DNA of 54,826 nucleotides from a virus (Duplodnaviria > Heunggongvirae > Uroviricota > Caudoviricetes). Of this stretch, positions 1,422 through 54,826 are shown one piece after another. A program made the translations under genes and the position numbers. Location of the stretch: IMG/VR virus record IMGVR_UViG_2687453585_000002; one strand, written 5' to 3'. Each line of letters begins with the position of its first letter. The first letter of the stretch is position 1. The notes under the pieces are model-generated. The model was not told where the DNA came from, ran no database searches, and saw nothing but the letters and a program-made list of their open reading frames with translations.

Positions 1422-3893
1422 TTAAAAATCAGCCTGATTCGGGATCAGTTTTTGCCAGATAACTGAAACGTATTTTGCCTGGTAACGGGCGTCATCAAGT
1501 GCATTATGGCGCTCACCTTCGAATGGAATAGCCGTTCTGGCATCGAAGTCTATGGCTTTCCCCAGCTCAACGATTGTGCGTACATCGCGATCGTTGTAGT
1601 AACGCCATGGGCAGGGGATCCCCTGCCGTTCGTATGAACGGCGCAAAATCGTGTTTTCGAAGTTGGCTCCATTTCCCCAGACCTGAACAAAAAATTCACC
1701 GGAGTTTTCGTCGATAAATTCCCGCAATTGTAACAGTGCATCATCTAACGGGATTTCATCGGTCATAATGGCAGACTGCGCTTCACGTGATTGCTTCAGC
1801 CACCTTTTAATGACGTCACGATCAATGACTCCGCCAGCAGTTTCCAGATCGATAGTCTTACTAAATTCCGGTCCCATATCTCCGGTTTGCGGATCGAAAA
1901 ATATTGCATCTATTGAGATAATCGGGGCATCAGGATTTTTTCCCATGGTTTCAAGGTCAATCATCAGATGGTGCCACAACCTGCTGGTGGATGTGCTTTT
2001 ACGATGACTGTTCACCTTAATTAAGGGATTTGCTGTCTCGCCTATTTCATTATTGTCATTGGCATGTTGATCGCCTTCGGTGCACTCCTTGTTCGGGAGT
2101 CCGGCATTTTCTATTTCCTCTGGATCTTTTTCCCGGGCTTCATCCTGGCTTTCTTCGTTGAATGTCTCCTGGTAGGTTGCGTCACCCATCACTGCGCCAC
2201 AATCAGGGCAGTTACCACCACCAGTCTGATTGCATGCGGTACAAACTTTTTCCTCTTCCTGTTGCACGACTGGTTCAGGTTGTTTCGTTTCTGGCTCGTT
2301 TTGTAACGCATTTTGGCTGTTTTGTTCCGCTTTTTGGTCGTACTGTTCCGTTTCTGACTGGTTCTGGTGCACAGAATCGCGGGTTTCAATCCCCTTCACC
2401 CATTTCGGATCATTCGGGTCGCTAATCCCTTCAACAAATTCACCACGTGATGCAGCGAGCAACTTATTAGCGTCAGGCTGGCTGATACTGGCTGCCTGCA
2501 TAATTTTGTTTACTTCGTCAGCGGTAACTTTTACCAGGTCTGGTTGTGCGGTCGTGTCAGATGCATCAGTATTTTGTTGTGAACCTGTGTATGTGCCGTT
2601 TTTGCGGGCAAAATATTCTTCTTTCGTGATTTCAGTTGCCCCGGCAGCCAGCGCCTTATCCAGACCAGAAAGTTTGTTTGCGCGACCGTATTTTTCGCCA
2701 TCCTTGTCGGTGAAGAGGAAGTAGAACGGCCCCTCACGCTCTACAGATGGTTCGACTTCCACTTTGCATTCGGTTTTTTCGTTGTCCGGAATTGCCGTTT
2801 CCACTGCATCAGTTTCTGGTACTGGCGACGAGAGAGTATCAGTTGCGCTCTGATTTCTTCCTTCATCTTCAAACACGCCCTTTGTAGTCAGGTATTCAGT
2901 AATGTATTTGTTCAGTGCCACAGGGTCTTTGTGAATGTCGATCGGACGTTCACGGACAAGGCCAAAAATAGTCTGGCGGTCGTAGCGAAGGGCATCAGGC
3001 TGTTTGCGCATTGATGCCGAGATACGCTTCCAGTCTTCGCGGTCGTTGTCGATAACTTCATTTTTTGCCCAGCGATGGATGCTGCCGTCAATGTTTCCGG
3101 CATCCACATCACCAGGCCAGAGAGCGTAGGCCAGTTCGTCATCCAGTGTTTTCCATGTCTGCTTGTATTCGCGATGAATGGCAGCAATGACCGGGCTGAT
3201 TTTTCCTGTTGAATTTTCAGTGTACTGTTGATTGGCTCTGGCGCGGGCGAGATCAACAACAGACGTGTATTTTCCGGTTTCCTTGCGTTCACCTTCACGA
3301 CGTTTTTTCCAGATGCGCATCTCTGCCTGAATTTCGGGCCATTTGGCACCAGGCTTACATTTATGCTTAACCCACCCGATGGCATGCAGCTTAAGCTCCG
3401 GATACATGGCGTTAACTTCTGGCATTTTCATCAACGCTTCAACGATATGTCCGTCGAATGTTGCCATGTCTTCCTGCAACAATTCCTGTGCGCTAATAAC
3501 CATATCAACGGTGATGTTTTCACATGTGTCGAACTTAACCATGACAGCGTTCTGTACTTCAGGGGCCAGCTTGTCAAAAGTGACGTTCATCGGATCGGAT
3601 TCAGTCTCAACCGGGACAAAGGAAGCAGACTCCTCATCCCAGCGGTTTTCCTGCATATATTCAGCATCCCAGGAATCGAGGGCAGGGCGGGGTATACCGG
3701 GTTTATCCTCGCAGACAAGAAATTTATAAGCGCAGTCCTGAGCAGCCGGATAATGTTCCAGGAATTGCCAGTGAAATTTTGCGCGGGCGCGACGTTCATC
3801 ACCGGCTTCAATGGCAGTGGCTACAGCGACGGCACCTTCTTCCTTTATTGCCTGTTCGTCCGGAATGGCGGCGCAAATAAAGACTTTACTCAT
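1422..3893 (-). CDS. putative exonuclease, C-terminal DnaQ-like (DEDDh) 3'-5' exonuclease domain with large N-terminal domain
   Basis: 823-aa ORF; C-terminal 'LMIDLETMG...' and '...HNALDDARYQAKY' motifs resemble DEDDh exonucleases; internal CxxC...CxxC zinc-ribbon-like motif (CTACNQTGGGNCPDCG). Confidence 0.6.
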   Translation of the reverse strand: MSKVFICAAIPDEQAIKEEGAVAVATAIEAGDERRARAKFHWQFLEHYPAAQDCAYKFLVCEDKPGIPRPALDSWDAEYMQENRWDEESASFVPVETESDPMNVTFDKLAPEVQNAVMVKFDTCENITVDMVISAQELLQEDMATFDGHIVEALMKMPEVNAMYPELKLHAIGWVKHKCKPGAKWPEIQAEMRIWKKRREGERKETGKYTSVVDLARARANQQYTENSTGKISPVIAAIHREYKQTWKTLDDELAYALWPGDVDAGNIDGSIHRWAKNEVIDNDREDWKRISASMRKQPDALRYDRQTIFGLVRERPIDIHKDPVALNKYITEYLTTKGVFEDEGRNQSATDTLSSPVPETDAVETAIPDNEKTECKVEVEPSVEREGPFYFLFTDKDGEKYGRANKLSGLDKALAAGATEITKEEYFARKNGTYTGSQQNTDASDTTAQPDLVKVTADEVNKIMQAASISQPDANKLLAASRGEFVEGISDPNDPKWVKGIETRDSVHQNQSETEQYDQKAEQNSQNALQNEPETKQPEPVVQQEEEKVCTACNQTGGGNCPDCGAVMGDATYQETFNEESQDEAREKDPEEIENAGLPNKECTEGDQHANDNNEIGETANPLIKVNSHRKSTSTSRLWHHLMIDLETMGKNPDAPIISIDAIFFDPQTGDMGPEFSKTIDLETAGGVIDRDVIKRWLKQSREAQSAIMTDEIPLDDALLQLREFIDENSGEFFVQVWGNGANFENTILRRSYERQGIPCPWRYYNDRDVRTIVELGKAIDFDARTAIPFEGERHNALDDARYQAKYVSVIWQKLIPNQADF

Positions 3894-3985
3894 TTTGTTT
3901 TACCTCATTACAGATTTAAGGGTGAACAAATCCCTGCCATTGCTGGCATATAAGAATGAAACCGGATATTTATTACGGAACTGTT

Positions 3986-4177
3986 TTAAAGACCTGCCGG
4001 GATTTCGTTATTATCCTGGTGAATAACTTTATCGACCGGGTAACAGTTACCGGGAATTTTCTGTTCGGTTGCTGCAGTCACACACTCCTGCATTGTCCTG
4101 TGAACACTGACTGCAATATCAACTGGCTCTCCGGAAACAAGAAAAACTGTCAGAACAAGTGCAAATGCTGTATTCAT
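3986..4177 (-). CDS. small membrane protein, YdfD-like (Qin-type lysis-associated protein)
   Basis: 63-aa product from internal Met (MNTAFALVLTVFLVSGEP...) with N-terminal hydrophobic segment; start codon overlaps dicB stop; position downstream of dicB as in dicBF operons. Confidence 0.45.
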   Translation of the reverse strand: MNTAFALVLTVFLVSGEPVDIAVSVHRTMQECVTAATEQKIPGNCYPVDKVIHQDNNEIPAGL

Positions 4178-4362
4178 TGCCAGCATCCTTTTTGTATCGG
4201 ACGTAAACGGGCCAGCATTGAAAGAATGCATATTTTATTTAATAGCTCCCGTTCGTGTTTTCTCTTGTTAATGGCATCTTCAGTAAATACAGGGTTACTG
4301 ATATTGACACCAATTTCAAAACAACCTTCAGACGTATTAACGTTTGGTAATAACGTTTCCAT
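4174..4362 (-). CDS. dicB: cell division inhibitor DicB
   Basis: 62-aa product METLLPNVNTSEGCFEIGVNISNPVFTEDAINKRKHERELLNKICILSMLARL... closely matches DicB as I recall it; preceded by DicF sRNA sequence. Confidence 0.8.
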   Translation of the reverse strand: METLLPNVNTSEGCFEIGVNISNPVFTEDAINKRKHERELLNKICILSMLARLRPIQKGCWQ

Positions 4363-4531
4363 TATCGCGTCCTCAACAATGAATTTTGTGATGCGGTGCC
4401 TGGTGCCTCCAGGTGACGTTAACCAGTTAACAATTAACGCCGGATACAGAGAATCCACCCATAACACTGTTTTTGGTTTTAACTGTTCCGCGTGCGCTCA
4501 GCCGCATTCACCACATCACAAAATTCACTTT

Positions 4532-4589
4532 AAAAAGGGCGGCAGAGCAGTCACGGAGTAAAACTGATACCGCCAAACGTCACCAGAAA
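4532..4589 (-). ncRNA. dicF: DicF small regulatory RNA (ftsZ-targeting)
   Basis: minus-strand sequence TTTCTGGTGACGTTTGGCGGTATCAGTTTTACTCCGTGACTGCTCUGCCGCCCTTTTT matches DicF as recalled; ends in GC hairpin plus T-run; located between ydfC-like and dicB as in Qin. Confidence 0.75.
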
Positions 4590-4927
4590 ATTGATAACAG
4601 AGGGCGTTGCAGCGGAGTTGTCACTTAAGCGTATGGTCAACCTGACAACCCGGTGTCCTCAACGGAGGAAGGAATAACCCCGCCATACTTACCGCCGCGC
4701 CATTTCGCGGAGTGCCACAACCGGAAGCGCACGGTCGAACTAAATTTAACGACACCGTACAGAGAGACCAATTTCGCCGTGCGCTTTCGCTTTATGCCCT
4801 GACTTTTCAGGGACATATCCTTTCAGTAAACTGTCAGTGCCGGATGTTCACCCGTGTCCGGCGCACGCACTCCACCTGACCCGTGGAGAACTCCTTAATT
4901 ACCAACCTTAGCTTCGTTGGTTAGCTA

Positions 4928-5146
4928 TTAACGCGGGTATGTAACCATTCTGGCAATGCTTAATGCCGCTGCTTTTTCCAGCCTGGTGATATCCTGCTCC
5001 AGAGCGGACAGATTTTCAGCCTGCTTAGTCCTGGCTTCATTGGCCCATTTCAGATCCTGCGCTGCATTAATTTTCTGGCGCATCCACTCATAAAGTTCAT
5101 CATCGGTATAGTCTGGCGCGATGATGACGGGTTCTCGTTTCTGCAT
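4928..5146 (-). CDS. hypothetical protein, YdfC-like
   Basis: 72-aa ORF in dicBF-type operon position upstream of dicF. Confidence 0.45.
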   Translation of the reverse strand: MQKREPVIIAPDYTDDELYEWMRQKINAAQDLKWANEARTKQAENLSALEQDITRLEKAAALSIARMVTYPR

Positions 5147-5175
5147 ACTGATTCCTCGCGGTGCTGCTTCGCTTA

Positions 5176-5304
5176 TCAGCCGTTAGATTTTGCCGAGCTG
5201 GAAAGCGCCTGTTTAAACTCACTGAAGCTGAGAGCTTCTTCGCCTTCGGCAAGGCCTTCGAAGTATTCTTCGTAAGCCTTTTCCATGATTGTGTCGAAAT
5301 CCAT
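5176..5304 (-). CDS. small acidic hypothetical protein, YdfB-like (42 aa)
   Basis: ORF below the 60-aa track cut-off, found by manual translation: MDFDTIMEKAYEEYFEGLAEGEEALSFSEFKQALSSSAKSNG; tightly packed between neighbouring ORFs. Confidence 0.4.
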   Translation of the reverse strand: MDFDTIMEKAYEEYFEGLAEGEEALSFSEFKQALSSSAKSNG

Positions 5305-5305
5305 A

Positions 5306-5461
5306 TCACTCACCTGAGTTTCTTTCCAGCCAGCGACGGGCACCATTTTCGGTTTTAAACGTTTTGCTTTTGGTATACGTCATTGCGGTGAACGTGCCGT
5401 CCTGGTTGGGGAACACGCCACATACCAGAGATTCGCTGTTGCCAAGATCGATAGTATCCAT
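5306..5461 (-). CDS. hypothetical protein, YdfA-like (51 aa)
   Basis: internal ATG at 5461 preceded by GAGG RBS; product MDTIDLGNSESLVCGVFPNQDGTFTAMTYTKSKTF...; first gene of leftward early operon. Confidence 0.45.
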   Translation of the reverse strand: MDTIDLGNSESLVCGVFPNQDGTFTAMTYTKSKTFKTENGARRWLERNSGE

Positions 5462-5645
5462 GCTGACCTCATTTCCCCTTAACGCCGGGGGAGCGGAACA
5501 AAAACCTGCTGCATAGTTATTAAAGTTGAACCCTGCCGTCATGTTCTTACGCCTCGGGCTGGCTACTTACCCCCTGACCACTGCTTGGTAACTCGAAGTA
5601 TTGCCCGGCGTTCTGTGGGGCGGGGTGGGTTGGTATGTTGTTAAG

Positions 5646-5659
5646 GTAACAAGAGTTAC
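5646..5659. promoter_or_regulatory. putative left operator (OL) palindrome GTAAC-AAGA-GTTAC
   Basis: perfect 5-bp inverted arms with 4-bp spacer, same architecture as the two palindromes between cI and cro; upstream of leftward early operon. Confidence 0.45.
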
Positions 5660-5702
5660 CTTTCGAGTCAATACAATGTTGCAAAAGGTACATTTGAGGG
5701 CA

Positions 5703-5726
5703 TAAAAAACCCGCAATGAATGCGGG
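5703..5726 (-). terminator. intrinsic terminator downstream of cI-like gene
   Basis: minus-strand hairpin CCCGCA-loop-TGCGGG followed by TTTTTTA, 8 nt after repressor stop. Confidence 0.6.
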
Positions 5727-5733
5727 TTCTGAC

Positions 5734-6408
5734 TCAGTCTAAGTATTGATGTATTTGTGAAACTTTACCTTTAATGGTGTAACCACCATTCAGTTCGATG
5801 GGTTTGTAAAGCGGATTCAGTGACAACAGATAGATGTTTGGTCCGTCAATCGCAACTTTTTTTAGTGTTACGTTTGGCGTTCCTTCCAATTGGATTAAGA
5901 TTATTTTTCCCACCAGTTCTCTAATGTTACTTGAGCATGGTGTGATCAGCACGGTAGATCCGTCGGGGATGGTTGGGAGGCCGTTAGAGTTTGTCATCGC
6001 ATCTCCCTCAACATGCAATAAAAAAGAGTTTTCAGCGGTTTTTGTCATGACATCAACCCAGTTCTTAATACCAGGAATCTTGGTTACTGGACAACTCATA
6101 TCCCAATAACCAGCCTGTTCCCACGTTAAAACGGGCAACCGGGCGATGTTGTCACTAATGTAAGGGTACTGATTCAGACGCAGATCATCGGTTTTATCGT
6201 GACCGTCCTTTCCATAAAGAATCCATTCAGGAGATTTGGAAAGCAATTTTGACAGTAGATACAAATTCTCACCGTCAGGTTTTGAAGAGCCATTTTCCCA
6301 TTTTGTTACGGATACACGAGATATGCCGATTGCTTTCGCAACCTGCTGTTGGGTTAATCCAACGTCTTTTCGACGATTCCGAATACGTTCGCTGATAGTG
6401 TTTTTCAT
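5734..6408 (-). CDS. CI-like prophage repressor (HTH_XRE + S24 LexA-like peptidase domain)
   Basis: N-terminal HTH (LTQQQVAKAIGISRVSVTKWENG) and C-terminal S24 domain; start placed at ATG 6408 because operator palindrome abuts it (leaderless, lambda PRM-like); in-frame alternatives at 6450 and 6507. Confidence 0.75.
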   Translation of the reverse strand: MKNTISERIRNRRKDVGLTQQQVAKAIGISRVSVTKWENGSSKPDGENLYLLSKLLSKSPEWILYGKDGHDKTDDLRLNQYPYISDNIARLPVLTWEQAGYWDMSCPVTKIPGIKNWVDVMTKTAENSFLLHVEGDAMTNSNGLPTIPDGSTVLITPCSSNIRELVGKIILIQLEGTPNVTLKKVAIDGPNIYLLSLNPLYKPIELNGGYTIKGKVSQIHQYLD

Positions 6409-6470
6409 GTAACCAATGTTACTACCAAGTGATGTTGCTATGGTTGACATTGTTATGTAACTATTGTTAC
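6409..6470. promoter_or_regulatory. OR-like operator region: palindromes GTAACCAATGTTAC (6409-6422) and GTAACTATTGTTAC (6457-6470); TTGACA at 6444-6449
   Basis: two 14-bp GTAAC-N4-GTTAC palindromes in the divergent cI/cro intergenic region. Confidence 0.55.
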
Positions 6471-6499
6471 CCTTCTGCTCGAAATAACAGGAGAGTTTT

Positions 6500-6715
6500 A
6501 TGTTCAAAGATGATGTTCTGCGCTATTTCAAAAAAAAGCGACTAGTAGCTGAGGCTCTTGGAATTTCACATGTGGCTGTTGTGCGGTGGAAAGCAGTTAT
6601 TCCCAAACTTCGCGCAATGGAACTGGATGAAATTACTAACGGTGAATTGAAATACAACCCAGAACTTTACAAGAAGCAGGATAGCACCTCGAACGAAGGA
6701 AAGAATGATTCATGA
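6500..6715 (+). CDS. Cro-like / YdaS-like HTH regulator
   Basis: 71-aa ORF divergent from repressor; AGGAGA RBS; HTH-like LVAEALGISHVAVVRWK. Confidence 0.65.
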   Translation: MFKDDVLRYFKKKRLVAEALGISHVAVVRWKAVIPKLRAMELDEITNGELKYNPELYKKQDSTSNEGKNDS

Positions 6716-7137
6716 AAATCAAGCATGAACACATCCGCATGGCGATGAATGCCTGGGCGCATCCGGACGGCGAAAAAGTGCCGGCTGCGAAAATTACCAA
6801 AGCGTATTTCGAGCTGGGAATGACGTTCCCGGAACTGTATGACGACAGCCATCCGGAAGCCCTGGCCCGTAATACCCAGAAAATTTTCCGTTGGCTGGAT
6901 AAAGACACCCCTGATGCTGTTGAAAAAATGCAGGCTCTGTTACCGGCGATCGAAAAGGCGATGCCGCCTTTGCTGGTGGCCCGTATGCGCAGCCACAGTT
7001 CTGAATATTACCGTGAGATCGTCGAACGGCGGGATCGGCTGGTGAAGGATGTCGATGATTTTGTTGCGTCAGCGGTTGTTTTGTATGACCAGATGAATCG
7101 CGGCGGCCCGGCAGGGAATGCTGTGGTGATGCACTAA
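6712..7137 (+). CDS. YdaT-like (CII-analog position) protein
   Basis: 141-aa ORF starting MKIKHEHI..., overlapping cro stop (ATGA); position and N-terminus resemble Rac YdaT family as recalled. Confidence 0.5.
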   Translation: MKIKHEHIRMAMNAWAHPDGEKVPAAKITKAYFELGMTFPELYDDSHPEALARNTQKIFRWLDKDTPDAVEKMQALLPAIEKAMPPLLVARMRSHSSEYYREIVERRDRLVKDVDDFVASAVVLYDQMNRGGPAGNAVVMH

Positions 7138-7159
7138 AAGCACGGTGTTCGGGGGTTTT

Positions 7160-8122
7160 ATGAGCAGCAAGCTTCATGGTCTTGTCTGGGAAGGGTGCGC
7201 CTTCACCGGCATGATCTTATCCAGGGTGGCGGTTATGGCCCGTCTTGCAGACTACAGCAATGACGAGGGCGTGTCATGGCCTGCCATTGAAACTATCCGG
7301 CGTCAGATCGGTGCAAGAAGTGAATCCACAGTGAAATCGGCTATTGCAGAACTGGCGAAAGAGGGCTGGCTGACGAAGGAAGAGCGTAAGGTCGGTGGGC
7401 GTAATGTAAGCAATATCTATCGGCTTAATGTGGAAAAACTCGAAGCAGCTGCGGCGGCGGCGCGTGAGTCATATAAACCGAAAAGAAAAATTAGCCCGGC
7501 AAAAAATGACCCGTTAACAGTTGACCCGTCAAATATTGACCCCTCAACGGTTGACCCGTCAAATTTTGATGGATCAACTGTTGATAAAAAACTGCCGATT
7601 AGGGGGCCGATGATTGACCCCGATCCGTCAGTATTAAAACCTGATCCGTCAGATAAAAGATCTTCTTGTCCGGACGCTTCGCAACCGGACCCGCAGACGG
7701 CTGAACAGGATTTTTTAACCCGACACCCTGACGCGGTTGTGTTCAGTGCGAAAAAACGCCAGTGGGGAAGTCAGGAAGATTTGGTGTGCGCACAGTGGAT
7801 CTGGGGACGAATCGTGAGTCTTTACGAGCAGGCGGCCAGCTATGATGGCGAGATCACTAGACCGAAAGAACCCAACTGGACAGCATGGGCCAATGACGTT
7901 CGCACAATGCGGATGCTGGATGGCAGAACTCACAGACAAATTTGTGAAATGTTTGGGCGTCTCCAGCGGGATTCGTTCTGGGTAAAAAACATCATGAGTC
8001 CGGCAAAACTCCGGGAAAAATGGGATGAACTGGTTATCCGCCTGGGGCGTTCGCCTGCGCAGCGTTGCGTGAATCACATTTCTGAACCGGACACTGAAAT
8101 ACCGCCGGGATTCAGGGGGTGA
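7160..8122 (+). CDS. replication initiation protein, O-like/YdaU-like
   Basis: N-terminal winged-helix-like region; central proline/aspartate-rich segment encoded by iteron-like DNA repeats; followed by DnaC-like loader; GTG at 7145 is an alternative start. Confidence 0.65.
   Translation: MSSKLHGLVWEGCAFTGMILSRVAVMARLADYSNDEGVSWPAIETIRRQIGARSESTVKSAIAELAKEGWLTKEERKVGGRNVSNIYRLNVEKLEAAAAAARESYKPKRKISPAKNDPLTVDPSNIDPSTVDPSNFDGSTVDKKLPIRGPMIDPDPSVLKPDPSDKRSSCPDASQPDPQTAEQDFLTRHPDAVVFSAKKRQWGSQEDLVCAQWIWGRIVSLYEQAASYDGEITRPKEPNWTAWANDVRTMRMLDGRTHRQICEMFGRLQRDSFWVKNIMSPAKLREKWDELVIRLGRSPAQRCVNHISEPDTEIPPGFRG
7505..7665. repeat. iteron-like direct repeats (putative ori) inside O-like gene
   Basis: repeated TTGACCCGTCAAAT / TTGACCCCTCAACGG / TGACCCGTTAACAG / TGATCCGTCAG units. 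Confidence 0.55.
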
Positions 8123-10261: not shown

Positions 10262-10948
10262 ATGACCCCAATAAAAATATTTATGACTATTGCTGATTTC
10301 AAACGGCCTAAATTGGAGCTCCCAAACGGGGCAAACAAACTACTACTGCACTCTTGCTGTGCTCCATGTTCCGGTGAAGTGATGGAGGCGCTTCAGGCCT
10401 CGGGAATCGACTACACCATCTTTTTCTACAACCCGAACATTCATCCTCAGAAAGAGTATTTAATTCGTAAGGATGAAAATATTCGCTTTGCTGAACAACA
10501 CGGCGTGCCGTTTATCGATGCTGATTACGACACCGACAACTGGTTTGAACGTGCCAAAGGAATGGAATGGGAGCCTGAGAGGGGGATCCGTTGTACCATG
10601 TGTTTTGACATGCGTTTTGAGCGGACAGCGTTGTACGCTGCTGAAAATGGTTTCAGTGTGATCAGCAGTTCACTGGGCATTTCACGCTGGAAAAATATGC
10701 AGCAGGTTAACGAGTGTGGGCGGCGAGCTGTTGCGCATTATCCGGGTATGGTGTACTGGGATTATAACTGGCGCAAGCAGGGCGGCTCGTCCCGTATGAT
10801 TGAAATCAGCAAGCGCGAAAAATTCTATCAGCAGGAATATTGTGGCTGTGTGTATTCTCTGCGCGATACCAATCTACACCGCAAATCTCAGGGACGCCCT
10901 CTTATCAAAATTGGCCAACTCCACTACGGAAAAGAAGAGAAGGAGTGA
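10262..10948 (+). CDS. DUF208/QueH-like protein (putative epoxyqueuosine reductase)
   Basis: [11 protein letters not shown] motif near N-terminus plus CTMC and CGC cysteine motifs and ~220-aa size fit the QueH family; start 10262 or 10283. Confidence 0.55.
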
Positions 10949-11185
10949 TTTTATGGATCACCTTTCTGATTGATTTCATATTGGCGAGGTGACGTGAGTT
11001 AAGTAGAATGGCTGCGGGTGCTTGAGGCTATCTGTCTCAGGCATGAACACTGAAAGGCAGATAGAGAAAAGCCCCAGTTAACATTTCGCGTCCTGCAAGA
11101 CGCTTAACATTAATCTGAGGCCCAATCTATGTCTCACAAATGTAGGTTAGCCTCTTACGTGCCGAAAGGCAAGGGGAAGCAGGCT

Positions 11186-11341
11186 ATGAAGCAGCAAAAG
11201 GCGATGTTAATCGCCCTGATCGTCATCTGTTTAACCGTCATAGTGACGGCACTGGTAACGAGGAAAGACCTCTGCGAGGTACGACTCCGAACCGGCCAGA
11301 CGGAGGTCGCTGTCTTCACAGCTTACGAACCTGAGGAGTAA
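11186..11341 (+). CDS. hok: Hok/Gef-family type I toxin (HokD/RelF-like)
   Basis: 51-aa product MKQQKAMLIALIVICLTVIVTALVTRKDLCEVRLRTGQTEVAVFTAYEPEE matches HokD nearly exactly as recalled; single TM helix. Confidence 0.85.
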   Translation: MKQQKAMLIALIVICLTVIVTALVTRKDLCEVRLRTGQTEVAVFTAYEPEE

Positions 11342-14612: not shown

Positions 14613-15662
14613 ATGGCTAATACTGTAAAAATATCCAGTTGTGAGTTAATCAACGCCGACTGCCTGGAATTTATCCGGTCGTTACCCGAAAATTCTGTTG
14701 ACCTGATAGTCACGGACCCGCCGTACTTTAAAGTGAAGCCTGAGGGCTGGGATAACCAGTGGAAGGGCGACGATGATTACCTGAAGTGGCTGGACCAGTG
14801 TCTGGCGCAGTTCTGGCGGGTGCTGAAACCTGCCGGAAGTCTTTACCTGTTCTGTGGTCATCGCCTGGCATCTGATATCGAAATCATGATGCGTGAACGC
14901 TTCAGTGTGCTGAACCATATTATCTGGGCGAAGCCGTCCGGACGCTGGAACGGATGCAACAAGGAAAGCCTGCGGGCGTATTTCCCCGCCACAGAGCGCA
15001 TTCTGTTCGCGGAACATTATCAGGGGCCGTATCGTCCGAAAGATGCCGGGTATGCGGCGAAGGGCAGTGCACTGAAACAGCATGTGATGGCCCCGCTGAT
15101 TTCTTACTTTCGTGATGCGCGCGCGGCCCTGGGGATAACGGCAAAACAGATTGCAGATGCCACAGGAAAGAAAAACATGGTGTCGCACTGGTTCAGTGCC
15201 AGTCAGTGGCAGCTACCGAACGAAAGCGATTATCTGAAATTACAGTCGCTGTTTGCCCGGGTGGCAGAAGAGAAACATCAGCGCGGTGAACTGGAAAAGC
15301 CCCACCACCAGCTGGTGGATACGTATACGTCACTGAACCGGCAGTATGTGGAGCTGCAGAGTGAATATAAGCATCTGCGGCGGTATTTTGGTGTGACGGC
15401 GCAGGTGCCGTACACGGATGTGTGGACACATAAACCGGTGCAGTTCTATCCCGGGAAACATCCGTGCGAAAAACCGGCAGAAATGCTGCAGCAGATAATC
15501 AGCGCAAGCAGTCGTCCGGGTGACCTGGTTGCAGATTTTTTTATGGGCTCAGGTTCAACGGTAAAAGCGGCACTGGCGCTCGGGCGTCGTGCGATTGGCG
15601 TTGAGCTGGAGACCGGACGTTTTGAGCAGACAGTCAGGGAAGTTCAGGGTTTAATCGTTTGA
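14613..15662 (+). CDS. DNA N6-adenine (or N4-cytosine) methyltransferase, orphan
   Basis: motif IV DPPY (IVTDPPYF) near N-terminus and motif I FxGxG (DFFMGSGS) near C-terminus; no adjacent restriction gene. Confidence 0.8.
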   Translation: MANTVKISSCELINADCLEFIRSLPENSVDLIVTDPPYFKVKPEGWDNQWKGDDDYLKWLDQCLAQFWRVLKPAGSLYLFCGHRLASDIEIMMRERFSVLNHIIWAKPSGRWNGCNKESLRAYFPATERILFAEHYQGPYRPKDAGYAAKGSALKQHVMAPLISYFRDARAALGITAKQIADATGKKNMVSHWFSASQWQLPNESDYLKLQSLFARVAEEKHQRGELEKPHHQLVDTYTSLNRQYVELQSEYKHLRRYFGVTAQVPYTDVWTHKPVQFYPGKHPCEKPAEMLQQIISASSRPGDLVADFFMGSGSTVKAALALGRRAIGVELETGRFEQTVREVQGLIV

Positions 15663-15711: not shown

Positions 15712-15787
15712 GGCCCTTTAGCTCAGTGGTGAGAGCGAGCGACTCATAATCGCCAGGTCGCTGGTTCAAATCCAGCAAGGGCCACCA
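15712..15787 (+). tRNA. tRNA with CAU anticodon (Ile2/Met type)
   Basis: acceptor stem GGCCCTT/AAGGGCC, GTTCAAATCC T-loop, anticodon loop CTCATAA, 3' CCA. Confidence 0.8.
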
Positions 15788-15887
15788 TCACAAACCGCCA
15801 TTAGCTTATCAGGAAGAGCAGACGACACGATAACAGGGTTGTTGGTGCGGGGGCGGGTCCCCGATGGCGGTCCATTATCGGTATTCA

Positions 15888-15964
15888 GCGTTGTTAGCTC
15901 AGCCGGACAGAGCAATTGCCTTCTAAGCAATCGGTCACTGGTTCGAATCCAGTACAGCGCGCCA
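15888..15964 (+). tRNA. tRNA-Arg (UCU)
   Basis: acceptor stem GCGTTGT/ACAGCGC, T-loop GGTTCGAATCC, anticodon loop CTTCTAA, 3' GCCA. Confidence 0.8.
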
Positions 15965-16428: not shown

Positions 16429-16875
16429 ATACATATCTGGATTATCACCGGTTACGGTAAAAAGTGATTGCTTACTGTTTTTGTGAATGGCATTGCTGCA
16501 GCCGGATAATGTCAGTGCTGGCTGACGGTGTGCTGGTGGCGGGTGTGGTGGTTGTTGCTTTCCCGTTGCTGAAAAAGAAAACGCCAGACTGTTAGCCGGG
16601 TATCAGTTAGCGGGAGAAATTTTTAAATACTTCACAATTCAGGCGGTTGATTGTTGTCTGGTTTGCGGGGAGTTTGTTAAAAGAAACTGGCATGGTGAAT
16701 CCCCCTGTGCGGAGGGGCAATCAGCGAGTAGGTATATGGGATAATCGCGGATTCAGGTGCTGGTACTGAATTCACCGGGAGGCACCCGGCACCATGCAAT
16801 GGCACATAGCGCCACTCTCCAGCCCCTCTCCGGAGGGGCTGTTTATATTGATTTTGTCAGATGTGAGTAAACTCC

Positions 16876-17211
16876 TTATGGACTTTGTTGTTTTAGTCCA
16901 TAAGGACATATTTGCAGAGTGCAACGGTTATTAAAGCATTCATTCAATACGTTATCTGTATTTGTAGGGCATTCCTGGCTGTTTTTGATTAAATTCCAGA
17001 ATGTTTTATTGAATGGTACTACGTTGTAAATGGTTACAGGTAGCACTTTGTTATTGAGCATGATGCCTGTGTGAGTCAGTGTAAATATACTTTCAGGAGG
17101 TAAGAAAGCATCCGATTGATACCAGATTATTAATTTTATTTTACTCCATATGACTGAAAAAGATATTCCGCATGATGGCTGGATAACTGTATCAATCACA
17201 ATCCACTTCAT
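16876..17211 (-). CDS. hypothetical cysteine-containing protein (AT-rich cargo)
   Basis: 111-aa ORF with AAGGAA RBS 7 nt upstream of ATG; 4 Cys in C-terminal third; visibly AT-rich relative to flanks. Confidence 0.45.
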
Positions 17212-20278: not shown

Positions 20279-20343
20279 AAATAATCCTCATGATTGTATT
20301 GACCTGTTGAAGTGGTTTACTGAATTTGGCCACCTGAACAGAG

Positions 20344-21527
<1,184 letters not shown>

Positions 21528-21636
21528 CTCGGTGGCCAGTTTTTGTTGACCACTTCATGTTAGCAGCCTGAGGCAACAGGCTGGAACTGATAAACATATC
21601 CAGGGCTCAGAAACCGATAAATCCTGATAAATATCC

Positions 21637-44116: not shown

Positions 44117-44496
44117 ATGCGTAAATTATGTGCTGTTATTTTGTCCGCAGTAGTCTGGCAGGTCGCCGCTGCTACGCCAGCGAGTGCAGCAGAACATCAG
44201 TCCACGCTGAGCGCGGGGTATCTCCATGCCTCGACGAACGTTCCCGGTAGTGATGATCTGAACGGGATTAACGTGAAATACCGTTATGAGTTTACGGACG
44301 CGCTGGGGCTGATTACGTCCTTCAGTTATGCCAATGCTGAGGATGAGCAAAAAACGCGCTACAGCGATACCCGCTGGCATGAAGATTCCGTGCGTAACCG
44401 CTGGTTCAGCGTGATGGCGGGGCCGTCTGTACGCGTGAATGAATGGTTCAGCGCGTATGCGATGGCGGGTGTGGCTTACAGCCGTGTGTCGACTTT
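44117..44496 (+). pseudogene. lom: lom-like outer membrane protein gene, 5' fragment (interrupted by IS)
   Basis: signal peptide plus Ail/Lom-family beta-barrel sequence up to ...AYSRVSTF, then IS terminal repeat. Confidence 0.75.
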
Positions 44497-44689
44497 TGCG
44501 TATTTTCATGAAAGGAGATCACTCAATAACTTCCATCGAGATCGGGTAATAACATTTGAACAGATCGCTGAATAACATCGATGGAGATCACTTTTGACTC
44601 ATTTTGTTATTCAGTGATCTCCATCAATGTTATTGGAACTTCACAGGTGTGTTGATCTGTATCTTTTGCCATTCCGGTAAAGGATACCT

Positions 44690-46231
44690 ATGCCAACAGT
44701 TCCAATTTCTATGAGAAAACTTAAAGAAATTCTTAGGCTTAAATACGGTGTTGGACTCAGCCATCGACAAATTGGTCGTAGTCTTGCAATCTCCCCTTCC
44801 GTTGTATCCAGATATGCTAATCGGGCGGCTCAACTTGGCATAAAGCAGTGGCCCTTACCTACAGGATGGGATGATACAAAACTAAAACATGCGTTCCTTC
44901 AGACCCAGGTTAAGATGAAGAAGCACTCTCTGCCTGACTGGGCTACAGTACACCGGGAACTGCGTAATAAATGCGTGACGCTGCAGCTACTCTGGGAAGA
45001 ATACTGTGAGCGTAATCCAGGCGGTTTTTACAGCTATAACCATTACTGCCGGATGTACCGTGAATGGCTCAAAACCACTTCACCATCAATGCGTCAGGTA
45101 CATAAAGCTGGCGAAAAACTTTTCGTTGATTACTGTGGACCTACCGTTGGCGTTACCGACCCTGAGACCGGAGAAATAAGAACTGCTCAGGTCATCGTAG
45201 CTGTTCTCGGGGCATCAAGTTACACATGGGCAGAGGCCACCTGGTCTCAGCAGCTTGAAGACTGGGTGATGAGTCATGTTCGCTGCTTCCAGTGGTTGGG
45301 TGGCGTTCCTGAACTTGTTGTTCCGGACAATCTGAAAAGCGCCACATCCAGGGCATGTAAGTATGATCCTGACGTTAACCCTACCTACCAGCAGATGCTT
45401 GAGCATTATAATGTCGCAGTTTTGCCTGCGCGGCCACGTAAACCGAAAGATAAAGCCAAAGCTGAAGTTGGCGTTCAGGTTGTTGAACGCTGGATCATGG
45501 CCCGAATCAGGCATGAGATCTTCTACAGCCTTGCATCGCTTAATCAGCGCATTCGGGAGTTGCTGGAAAGACTGAATAACAAAATAATGCAGAAGTTGGG
45601 TTATTCACGTGCAGAACTCTTCATCCAGCTTGATAAACCCGCACTGAAGCCTCTTCCTGAAGCCAGTTACAGTTACACCCTGGTGAAGAAAGTCAGAGTT
45701 CATGCCGATTACCACGTGGAAATCGACAAACATTACTACTCGGTTCCATGTTCGCTGTTAGGCCAGCAACTGGAAGCATGGATCTCCGGAGAACTGGTAA
45801 GACTCTTCAATCAGGGGCAGGAGGTTGCTGTGCACCCGCGCAAGCGTACTTATGGCTACAGTACCCGCAACGAGCACATGCCTGAAGCTCATCGACAGCA
45901 TGCCACCTGGACGCCAGAGCGTCTTCTGGAATGGGCGGGGCACATAGGCAGTGAAACTCATAGTTATGTGCTTCATATACTGAACTCTCGTCCACATCCG
46001 GAACAAAGCTATCGCTTCTGCCTTGGACTCCTGAACCTTCATAAAAAATACAGTAAAGCCAGACTTAATGCAGCATGTGCAAGAGCTCTGAAAACAAAGG
46101 TATGGCGTCTGTCAGGTATTAAATCGATCCTGGAAAAAGGTCTGGATAAACAACCTGTTCAGGATCCAAAACCAGATCTGTTATCCACGATGGAACACGA
46201 AAACGTACGCGGCAGTGAGTATTACCACTGA
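44690..46231 (+). CDS. istA: IS21-family transposase IstA
   Basis: 513 aa; N-terminal HTH; DDE core. Confidence 0.8.
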   Translation: MPTVPISMRKLKEILRLKYGVGLSHRQIGRSLAISPSVVSRYANRAAQLGIKQWPLPTGWDDTKLKHAFLQTQVKMKKHSLPDWATVHRELRNKCVTLQLLWEEYCERNPGGFYSYNHYCRMYREWLKTTSPSMRQVHKAGEKLFVDYCGPTVGVTDPETGEIRTAQVIVAVLGASSYTWAEATWSQQLEDWVMSHVRCFQWLGGVPELVVPDNLKSATSRACKYDPDVNPTYQQMLEHYNVAVLPARPRKPKDKAKAEVGVQVVERWIMARIRHEIFYSLASLNQRIRELLERLNNKIMQKLGYSRAELFIQLDKPALKPLPEASYSYTLVKKVRVHADYHVEIDKHYYSVPCSLLGQQLEAWISGELVRLFNQGQEVAVHPRKRTYGYSTRNEHMPEAHRQHATWTPERLLEWAGHIGSETHSYVLHILNSRPHPEQSYRFCLGLLNLHKKYSKARLNAACARALKTKVWRLSGIKSILEKGLDKQPVQDPKPDLLSTMEHENVRGSEYYH

Positions 46232-46242
46232 TACGGGATCCA

Positions 46243-46992
46243 ATGATGAATCATCTTTACGAACAACTGACCGCACTTAAACTCACCGGCTTCCGTGATG
46301 CGCTTAAAAAGCAACTTGCTCAACCGGGCACATACCAGGAGCTGGGCTTCGAAGAACGCCTGTCATTACTGACAGCAGAAGAACTAACCTGCCGTGAAAA
46401 CAGGAAGGCAGAGCGTCTGATCAAACATGCACGGTTCAGACTTAATGCTGAGTTATCAAAGCTGGATTATCGTAACAATAGAGGGCTGGACAGGGCCCTC
46501 ATCCGTTCACTCAGTCAGGGAAACTGGTTAACCCTGAAACAAAATATTTTACTGACCGGGGCCACCGGCAGCGGTAAAACGTTCCTGGCATGTGCACTTG
46601 GTCATAATGCCTGCCGACAGGGATACAAGGTCTACTATTATCGCCTTAAAGCGCTGATGGAACAGTGCTATCAGGGGCATGCTGATGGAAGATACAGCAA
46701 ACTTTTGACCAGGCTGAATAATAGCGATCTGCTGCTTCTGGATGACTGGGGGCTGGAACCTCTCTCATCAGAACAGCGTAGCGACCTGCTGGAAATAGTG
46801 GATCTGATGTACCAACGAGGCTCAATCATCGTAGTGAGCCAGTTGCCGGTGGAAAACTGGTACAAAATGATCGGAGACTCCACACATGCGGATGCCATCC
46901 TAGATCGACTGGTTCATGGCAGTATCAAGATCGAACTTAAAGGAGAATCAATGCGGAAAATACAATCTCCGTTGACCGAAGGAGATCAGTGA
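46243..46992 (+). CDS. istB: IS21-family helper ATPase IstB
   Basis: Walker A GATGSGKTFLA and Walker B LLLLDDWG. Confidence 0.85.
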   Translation: MMNHLYEQLTALKLTGFRDALKKQLAQPGTYQELGFEERLSLLTAEELTCRENRKAERLIKHARFRLNAELSKLDYRNNRGLDRALIRSLSQGNWLTLKQNILLTGATGSGKTFLACALGHNACRQGYKVYYYRLKALMEQCYQGHADGRYSKLLTRLNNSDLLLLDDWGLEPLSSEQRSDLLEIVDLMYQRGSIIVVSQLPVENWYKMIGDSTHADAILDRLVHGSIKIELKGESMRKIQSPLTEGDQ

Positions 46993-47078
46993 AGGTAATT
47001 TAAAAACGGTTCTGTGAAAGTGACACGAACCGATCTCCATCGATGTTACTCACCGATCTCCTTCACGGTAATACGCAA

Positions 47079-47302
47079 CTTTCTCCGGGGATTATCTCCG
47101 CGTAACTGACAACAAGGGGAAAACGCACGATGTGCTGACCGGAAGTGATGACGGTCGCCACAGCAACACGTCTCTGGCGTGGGGGGCTGGCGTGCAGTTT
47201 AACCCGACCGAATCCGTGACCATTGACCTTGCTTATGAAGGTTCCGGTAGTGGCGACTGGCGAACGGATGCATTTATTGTTGGTATCGGATACCGTTTCT
47301 GA
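47079..47302 (+). pseudogene. lom: lom-like gene, 3' fragment
   Basis: in-frame continuation ...SGDYLRVTDNKGKTHDVLTGSDDGRHSNTSLAWGAGVQFNPTESV...GIGYRF* after the IS. Confidence 0.75.
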
Positions 47303-54268: not shown

Positions 54269-54826
54269 TTAAAACCGCATCAACCTTTCCACCAATTGTT
54301 CTTTACGGGCAACGATCCACCCATGTTGCTCCAGATAAAATTTAAACCGTTCCAGCGTGCATACCATCGCATCGGCGGGGACTTTTTCTGTGAACTCGAC
54401 CTGACCGTGTTTATCGAAGTGGATCAGTAATGCGCATCCATTATTTGGGGCGGGGGAGTTTTGTGCTGCAGGAGGACGTTTGTGGAGTTCTTCTTCCATT
54501 GCGTTAAATTTTTCAATGTAAGCTTCTTTTAGTCTGGCTGCTTTTTTGCCAGTAAATCCCATTACGAGGAACATGAAGCCGTCTTTTGTGATCAGGTAGC
54601 ATCGTGATTCACGTTCTGCGCCGTTGCCAATTTCGACAGTCTGAACATCGGCCGAAAAGTTGGCTGATGTAAATTCGGGAGAGCAGTCGAGTGTGTCAAT
54701 CTTAGCTAAAACGTGTTTATGTTGTTTATCGAAGTAGTCGGCAACAGCTTGAGAGGTGGTAACCAGGCGACCATCTTTGAAAAAGACTTTTGGTGACTCG
54801 TTAGAAAAAGTTATAGCTGTATTCAT
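54269..54826 (-). CDS. Rha-family phage regulatory protein
   Basis: 185 aa; N-terminal VTTSQAVADYFDKQHKHVLAKIDTL resembles Rha N-terminal domain; start ATG is the last 3 nt of the window. Confidence 0.6.
   Translation of the reverse strand: MNTAITFSNESPKVFFKDGRLVTTSQAVADYFDKQHKHVLAKIDTLDCSPEFTSANFSADVQTVEIGNGAERESRCYLITKDGFMFLVMGFTGKKAARLKEAYIEKFNAMEEELHKRPPAAQNSPAPNNGCALLIHFDKHGQVEFTEKVPADAMVCTLERFKFYLEQHGWIVARKEQLVERLMRF

Follow-up and report, generated by a model that had tools for sequence, protein, structure and literature searches.

A dicBF division-inhibition operon beside a cI-like repressor lacking the S24 nucleophile serine in an ompW lambdoid prophage

The window considered in this study (the whole 54.8-kb stretch of DNA that was analysed) carries, on a single strand and downstream of an immunity repressor, the elements ydfA, ydfB, ydfC, dicF, dicB, and ydfD in that order, as judged from open reading frames, protein families, and alignment. 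It is probable that these constitute the standard pL-type dicBF operon of an ompW lambdoid prophage, repressed by the adjacent cI-like protein, and that the repressor is most likely non-cleaving. As a discovery, this matters little, since the dicBF operon was already known. The point worth keeping is the allele of the repressor, which has no nucleophile and is widespread, being carried by 682 of the 5426 complete E. coli genomes. Should the loss of cleavage prove correct, a common prophage would hold its division inhibitors in check while DNA is damaged, and this would bear on how one reads the filamentation seen after antibiotic treatment in those clinical lineages of E. coli that have the prophage.

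The agreement of the parts of the module (Table 1) with the dicBF families is far beyond chance. YdfB and YdfC fall into no family in a search of Pfam; both match PHROGs, and YdfB has the same protein accession as the K-12 protein (WP_000344964.1). On identical DNA in E. coli strain 4/1-1, RefSeq names ydfA, ydfB, ydfC, dicB, and ydfD, annotates no gene in the spacer between ydfC and dicF, and labels the upstream repressor "LexA family protein." The start of ydfA is given differently by different records: RefSeq has the 156-nt form and the record of phage Tritos the 237-nt form, the latter corresponding to an in-frame ATG further upstream, at 5542, and a protein of 78 aa. The preliminary description of this DNA, made from its letters, had proposed the Qin-type order YdfA, YdfB, YdfC, DicF, DicB, YdfD, and every element was indeed found within a few bases of the place assigned to it. 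The end it gave for the region, 5542, is the upstream ATG, above the usual start of ydfA.

Table 1. Features of the dicBF operon and its surroundings, by position in the window
Feature	Positions	Strand	Description
Integrase	1131-1	minus	RefSeq annotation
Excisionase	1357-1109	minus	RefSeq annotation
Exonuclease	3893-1422	minus	823 aa; Pfam Rv2179c-like, 1e-60
ydfD-like gene	4177-3986	minus	63 aa; Pfam DUF1482, 3.7e-25; small gene that closes the dicBF module
dicB	4362-4174	minus	62 aa; MinC-dependent division inhibitor; Pfam DicB, 9.9e-37
dicF-dicB spacer	4536-4363	minus	Structured; long closing stem around a multibranch structure
DicF sRNA	4588-4537	minus	Rfam RF00039; terminator T-run continues to ~4532
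ydfC-dicF spacer	4589-4927	minus	Untranslated, ~340 nt; precursor RNA upstream of DicF
ydfC	5146-4928	minus	72 aa; PHROG 1744, 2.9e-39; RefSeq "protein YdfC"
ydfB	5304-5176	minus	42 aa; PHROG 2061, 1.3e-27
ydfA	5461-5306	minus	51 aa, 156 nt; Pfam DUF1391, 8.8e-28
Leader	5462-5636	minus	~175 nt upstream of ydfA; no notable fold
Predicted pL-type promoter and OL	5643-5671	minus	TTGACT, 17 nt, TACCTT
Terminator-like hairpin and T-run	5702-5729	minus	Just past the repressor gene; read from the sequence: GAACCCGCATTCATTGCGGGTTTTTT
cI-like repressor	6450-5734	minus	238 aa; Pfam HTH_3, 3.5e-17, and Peptidase_S24, 9.8e-17
OR region	6409-6470		Exact operators, 6409-6422 and 6457-6470; spacing 48 nt
cro-like gene	6500-6715	plus	Pfam P22_Cro, 2.9e-16
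cII-like / YdaT-family gene	6712-7137	plus	YdaT_toxin, 2.8e-10; PHROG 163 "CII-like transcriptional activator," 3.2e-48

From just 5' of ydfA to past ydfD, the region is collinear with the Qin prophage of K-12 and with phage Tritos, and this includes the ydfC-dicF spacer, apart from one short divergent patch. The likeness to Qin covers gene order and strand logic, a DNA identity of ~96% from ydfA to ydfD, and the placement of an early-left operon that adjoins a cI/cro-type switch and is followed by an exonuclease gene. The two differ in what governs the operon: Qin has the 135-aa, HTH-only DicA together with DicC and Rem, whereas the window has a 238-aa repressor with HTH and S24 fold and a Cro of the P22_Cro type. 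They differ also in that the exonuclease, xis, and int genes, truncated by IS2 in Qin, are intact here.

Judged by their sequences, DicF and DicB are authentic. In an Rfam scan of the whole window, DicF matches RF00039 over its full length (1-52 of 52) with 76.7 bits (gathering score 48; E 3e-15), and alignment with K-12 Qin and phage Tritos shows it to be identical to K-12 dicF base for base, the 53-nt segment and the terminator being the same. DicB shares 54 of its 62 residues with K-12 DicB (87%), with no gaps and no stops, and covers the Pfam DicB model in full (positions 1-62 of 62); the eight substitutions lie mostly in the C-terminal tail. Inactivating changes were looked for in both by alignment to K-12, and none was seen. 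The two identifications made in the preliminary description thus survive comparison with dicF and dicB.

DicF is followed by a spacer that is nearly identical to that of K-12. A 246-nt stretch comprising DicF and the spacer (4600-4355) folds at -88.3 kcal/mol (z -4.79), and none of 200 shuffled versions folds as well. Such strong folding agrees with the RNase III cleavage described for K-12, where the processing of DicF by RNases III and E has been studied experimentally (PMC10448788), and the spacer is likely a substrate of RNase III whose cleavage would release the 3' end of DicF. A permissive Rfam scan of positions 3800-7200 gave a match to STnc100 at 4330-4539, below threshold at 38.7 bits.

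At the other end of the operon, the leader upstream of ydfA is common to dicBF operons that have different immunity regions. It is present in Tritos and replaced in K-12 Qin, and the matches in most genomes end at ~5637-5641, the upstream edge of the leader. A put- or nut-like antitermination RNA was considered for the leader and dropped, the 179-nt segment 5640-5462 folding with a z of +0.62. In the leader, the permissive scan (Rfam, 3800-7200) yielded no match; as for put-like RNA, Rfam gives nothing in phage HK022 either.

Upstream of the leader, and after the terminator-like hairpin that follows the repressor gene, lies the predicted pL. Its spacer and -10 hexamer are covered by a palindrome, GTAACAAGAGTTAC (5646-5659), that we take as the operator OL. 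Palindromes of this form, GTAAC-N4-GTTAC, occur exactly three times in the 54.8 kb, at 5646, 6409, and 6457, solely at two promoter regions, the second being the interval between the repressor and the cro-like gene. There, one of the two operators overlaps the predicted pR (TTGACA at 6444-6449, 18 nt, TACCCT). Both promoters were placed by eye; a generic promoter consensus scan called neither, and their matches to the consensus are weak.

A chance origin of the motif was rejected, since there are three exact sites at promoters when ~0.8 sites would be expected in 54.8 kb even with one mismatch allowed, and since the sites are kept in relatives. The same sites in the same arrangement are found beside repressors 87% and 65% identical to that of the window, in flanking DNA that has diverged. 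The OR pair, with its 48-nt spacing, recurs in five relatives (L007-L009, L013, and L018), and in the diverged L007 the promoter and OL are found at the matching place. There is a single operator at the predicted pL, as against three in lambda. The occurrence of one palindrome both at the predicted pL and in the cI/cro region argues in favour of the cI-like protein repressing the operon directly. It is plausible that the three palindromes mark pL and pR/pRM and that the protein represses directly from them, and likely that the adjacent repressor controls the dicBF operon through these shared operators. According to this scheme, the repressor in a lysogen would bind the three 14-bp palindromes (one at the predicted pL, two between cI and cro), and the operon would be silent.

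That a full-length cI-like repressor stands here in place of the short DicA had been recognized beforehand, and rightly so: the 238-residue protein joins an HTH to an S24 fold and aligns over its full length to lambda cI (PDB 3bdn; phmmer, E 3.7e-14). An alternative start lies at 6408. With lambda cI and LexA (MEROPS S24), it shares the two-domain layout, the Ala-Gly, the Lys, and palindromic operators at divergent promoters. Its EQAG aligns with A111-G112 of lambda, making residues 113-114 the Ala-Gly, and its Lys197 aligns with K192. It differs from them, however, at the nucleophile: S149 of lambda, within GNSM, is replaced by Ala151, within GDAM (codon GCG, plus-strand positions 5998-6000).

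The distribution of this substitution was followed at three scales. Among 18 aligned sequences (the repressor and 17 homologues), G(D/E)SM is found in 13 and GDAM in three, i.e., in the window repressor, a relative 88% identical to it, and a Salmonella relative 68% identical; one homologue is degenerate at the motif. The Ser is kept in a relative 87% identical (P0003), whose gene also adjoins ydfA. Complete E. coli genomes were searched with a 41-mer so chosen that the codon lies within each of its 28-nt seed words. With Ala, exact matches were found in 682 of the 5426 genomes; with Ser (TCG), the 41-mer matched none of the 5426. These counts led us to reject a sequencing error or a private mutation as the source of Ala151; the copy in an O111 strain is likewise GDAM. 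Finally, a wider set of 125 full-length relatives was assembled from the first set of hits and from a search across 1.8 billion cluster representatives. The nucleophile position is Ser in 104 of them, Ala in nine, and Thr in seven, while Ala-Gly is present in 76 and Lys in 117. By these alignments, loss of the nucleophile recurs among relatives and is a minority state. Most of the other relatives without a nucleophile have lost Ala-Gly; the window repressor keeps both Ala-Gly and Lys.

Replacing this Ser in LexA (S119A) or in lambda cI abolishes self-cleavage as well as RecA-stimulated cleavage. Since the repressor of the window has Ala at the same position, SOS inducibility by way of RecA-stimulated self-cleavage is unlikely, and the protein is most likely non-cleaving, or "ind-minus-like." The preliminary description had spoken of an S24 autoprotease and of functions aimed at FtsZ and MinC that are SOS-inducible on that account. 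The former is not supported, given the Ala in place of Ser149 and the genome counts for the two alleles (682 vs. 0), and the latter finds no support in a repressor without the nucleophile Ser. What is gained is a correction: a match to the Peptidase_S24 domain is no evidence of SOS inducibility. The repressor would appear to act in the manner of cI, but it should not be classed among the autoproteases.

One might nonetheless suppose that RecA-activated self-cleavage takes place, so that DNA damage directly derepresses pL and turns on DicF, DicB, and YdfD. The full-length architecture of HTH and Peptidase_S24 and the conserved Ala-Gly and Lys are what such a protein should have, P0003 retains Ser next to ydfA, and in the E. 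coli phage vB_EcoS-640R1 dicB, ydfC, and ydfD stand beside an S24 cI that bears the Ser. We consider self-cleavage quite improbable even so, as the place of the nucleophile is taken by Ala both in the window protein and in each of the 682 E. coli genomes that match, and cleavage is lost in Ser-to-Ala mutants of LexA and of lambda cI. Also, the immunity type is found in no sequenced phage: the phage collection holds no record more than 44% identical to this repressor, an absence that is consistent with poor inducibility but no proof of it. Finally, prophages inserted at ompW (the PPompW class) yielded no packaged DNA after mitomycin C (PMC8112680).

That Ala-Gly and Lys are conserved could mean either that the nucleophile was lost recently or that cleavage of the protein still takes place in trans. 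In the second case, a related S24 protein in the same cell, itself bearing Ser, would cut the repressor during SOS. Intermolecular cleavage by the C-terminal domains of LexA and cI is known, and the retention of Ala-Gly, unlike its loss in most relatives without a nucleophile, would suit a substrate of this kind. Cleavage in trans, however, is inefficient in the known cases, and a recent substitution explains the retained Ala-Gly equally well. We regard this route as exceedingly improbable.

A non-cleaving repressor might instead be disarmed by an antirepressor, a small protein that binds it and frees pL, as Rem does with DicA and GfoA with the Gifsy repressors. The source could be the prophage of the window (e.g., the Rha-like gene at its right end) or a co-resident prophage. 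Such control is documented for dicBF in Qin, and for Gifsy phages, and the Rha-like product (54826-54269) matches PHROG anti-repressor families with values of 1e-16 to 1e-28. Its best PHROG matches, however, are generic "transcriptional regulator" families. A Rem-type antirepressor was sought by tblastn with K-12 Rem, which found no rem homologue in the window, and the space that separates hokD from the DUF968 gene, the site of rem in K-12, is too short in the window. An antirepressor under LexA control at the right end was likewise discarded, there being no good LexA box 5' of the ash/Rha genes. Moreover, the repressors known to be controlled in this way, those of the DicA/GfoR type, are short (~135-150 aa) and HTH-only, without an S24 domain, and have a cognate Rem or GfoA, whereas the window repressor has 238 aa and an S24 domain. 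Relief by an antirepressor therefore seems improbable. The Rha-like gene lies at the right edge of the window, and in strain 4/1-1 an ash-like gene is found upstream of it.

Perhaps the substitution was selected as a lock blind to SOS: Ser alone would have been lost, with the fold, dimerization, Ala-Gly, and Lys kept, and dicBF and ydfD would remain silent during DNA damage. We offer this tentatively, as a possibility that is open to considerable doubt. If true, the ompW prophage and its toxic cargo would be silent in ~1/8 of complete E. coli genomes, with control handed over to rare Cro-type switching or to other inputs, and the loss of the nucleophile in ~15% of related HTH-S24 repressors would suggest that prophages are domesticated by this route in general.

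Whether or not it was selected, a repressor that is probably non-cleaving makes rare Cro-type switching, or some other input, a likelier trigger than SOS. A comparison may be drawn with DicA and DicC in Qin, which show bistable switching (PMC10448788). Once the cI-like protein no longer represses, a single transcript would be made leftward, comprising the leader, ydfA, ydfB, ydfC, the 340-nt spacer, DicF, the folded spacer, dicB, and ydfD. Judging from the shared strand and the lambda-like layout, the transcript probably runs on through positions 3893-1, that is, into the genes for exonuclease, excisionase, and integrase. DicF would be cut out of this single operon RNA, and DicB would bring MinC to the septum and thereby block FtsZ; both DicF and DicB would inhibit FtsZ, as they do in K-12.

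The prophage sits between ompW and trpA, which places it in the PPompW class. A survey of 767 complete genomes found prophages of this class in 44% of them and described them as apparently defective (PMC8112680). The window is the same as strain 4/1-1 apart from an IS911-like element of 1250 bp (20308-21557), which lies in the lysis cassette, with the holin/YdfR genes on one side and the endolysin gene on the other. The suggestion that the prophage is otherwise complete is borne out for the head, tail, terminase, replication, and Q genes, which are annotated as intact. It overstates the case with regard to the IS911-like element, to ISEc12, which splits lom, and to the tail-fibre region, with its several pseudogene fragments, and it is at odds with the description of PPompW prophages as defective.

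The dicBF operon has already been documented and annotated, as have its distribution over the prophages of E. coli and its location beside cI/cro-type switches. It is on record from several large prophages of the lambdoid kind (PMC5069750) and from mEp460_ev081, a functional phage (PMC10448788), and it is found in sequenced phages as well, DicF being annotated in Tritos. Over a 1861-bp stretch, the window shows 100% identity to RefSeq chromosomes that are annotated, among them that of strain 4/1-1. Matches to the stretch occur in 4770 of the 5426 complete E. coli genomes, in a median of two places per matching genome, and at least 80% of it is covered in 2137 genomes. The junction of ydfA with this exact repressor is found in 699 genomes. 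The juxtaposition of dicBF with an S24 repressor is thus real but ordinary: in sampled genomes, the module is joined variously to HTH-only repressors, repressors accompanied by RelE/ParE toxins, stand-alone S24 genes, and full-length S24 repressors. The other carriers of dicBF that were compared (PPompW, the CP-933 islands, Tritos, mEp460_ev081, vB_EcoS-640R1, and others) have the same module, and only the immunity allele differs.

The 175-nt leader 5' of ydfA is conserved among prophages whose immunity regions are unrelated, and its conservation ends almost exactly at the start site of the predicted leftward promoter pL. The Qin prophage of K-12 lacks the leader. No fold signal was found within the leader in the window.

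In some E. coli strains (loci L014, 3458-3796, and L017, 3455-3793), a gene encoding a stand-alone S24 domain of 112 amino acids lies upstream of ydfA. It retains the nucleophile serine (ESDSMS) and has no helix-turn-helix (HTH), and about 390 bp of unannotated DNA precedes cro. Splitting or decay of a repressor gene may account for it. In phage vB_EcoS-689R5 (locus L020, 3640-4284), the dicBF module is adjoined by a 214-amino-acid repressor with both HTH and S24 domains, in which threonine rather than serine occupies the nucleophile position (DDTM).

Further features of the window
Feature	Window coordinates	Remarks
STnc100 match in dicF-dicB spacer	4330-4539	below threshold, 38.7 bits, E 4e-6
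ydfA leader	5462-5640
QueH-like gene (epoxyqueuosine reductase)	10283-10948	cargo
hok/sok type I toxin-antitoxin	11016-11341	Rfam sok, 120.5 bits
hokD CDS	11186-11341	part of hok/sok
DNA methyltransferase gene	14613-15662	LexA-box-like site begins 8 nt within gene
LexA-box-like site	14621-14640	TACTGTAAAAATATCCAGTT
Two tRNA genes	15712-15964	cargo; anticodons CAT and TCT
STnc100 small RNA	16661-16850	full match, 132 bits
IraM-like anti-adapter gene	about 16876-17211	cargo
IS911-like element (IS3 family)	20308-21557	two transposase ORFs; 27-nt imperfect inverted ends
lom fragments	about 44117-44554 and 47075-47302	flank ISEc12
ISEc12 (IS21 family; istA/istB)	44690-46992	interrupts lom-like outer-membrane gene
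Rha-like gene	54269-54826	prophage right end; similar to anti-repressor families

Since the dicF-dicB spacer (sub-threshold) and the full STnc100 match belong to the same family model, a relationship between these two structured RNAs is possible. Upstream of the full match are the Q antiterminator gene and both tRNA genes.

Another candidate lies just beyond the window, upstream of the Rha-like gene in strain 4/1-1 (locus L005, 30289-30760). Here a near-consensus promoter (TTGACA, 17 nt, TATATT) is followed by hairpins and the terminator-like GCCGCGTTTGCGGTTTTTTTT, a stretch that might specify a small RNA or a leader. All of these elements fall within a CDS annotated as "ash family".

The LexA-box-like site is a good match (16 of 20 positions of the consensus, with CTG-N10-CAG), equaled in only 2 of 300 shuffles. 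From this site, SOS control of the phage methyltransferase is possible.

Cargo gene names were taken from the RefSeq annotation of identical sequence. In Qin, hokD is followed by rem, whereas the window carries hok/sok in the equivalent place but no rem.

The IS911-like element sits between the endolysin gene and the holin/YdfR-like genes. The prophage of strain 4/1-1, identical in other respects, has no such insertion, and the element may exert a polar effect on lysis genes. The ISEc12/lom region is followed by several pseudogene fragments, of tail-fibre and recombinase genes.
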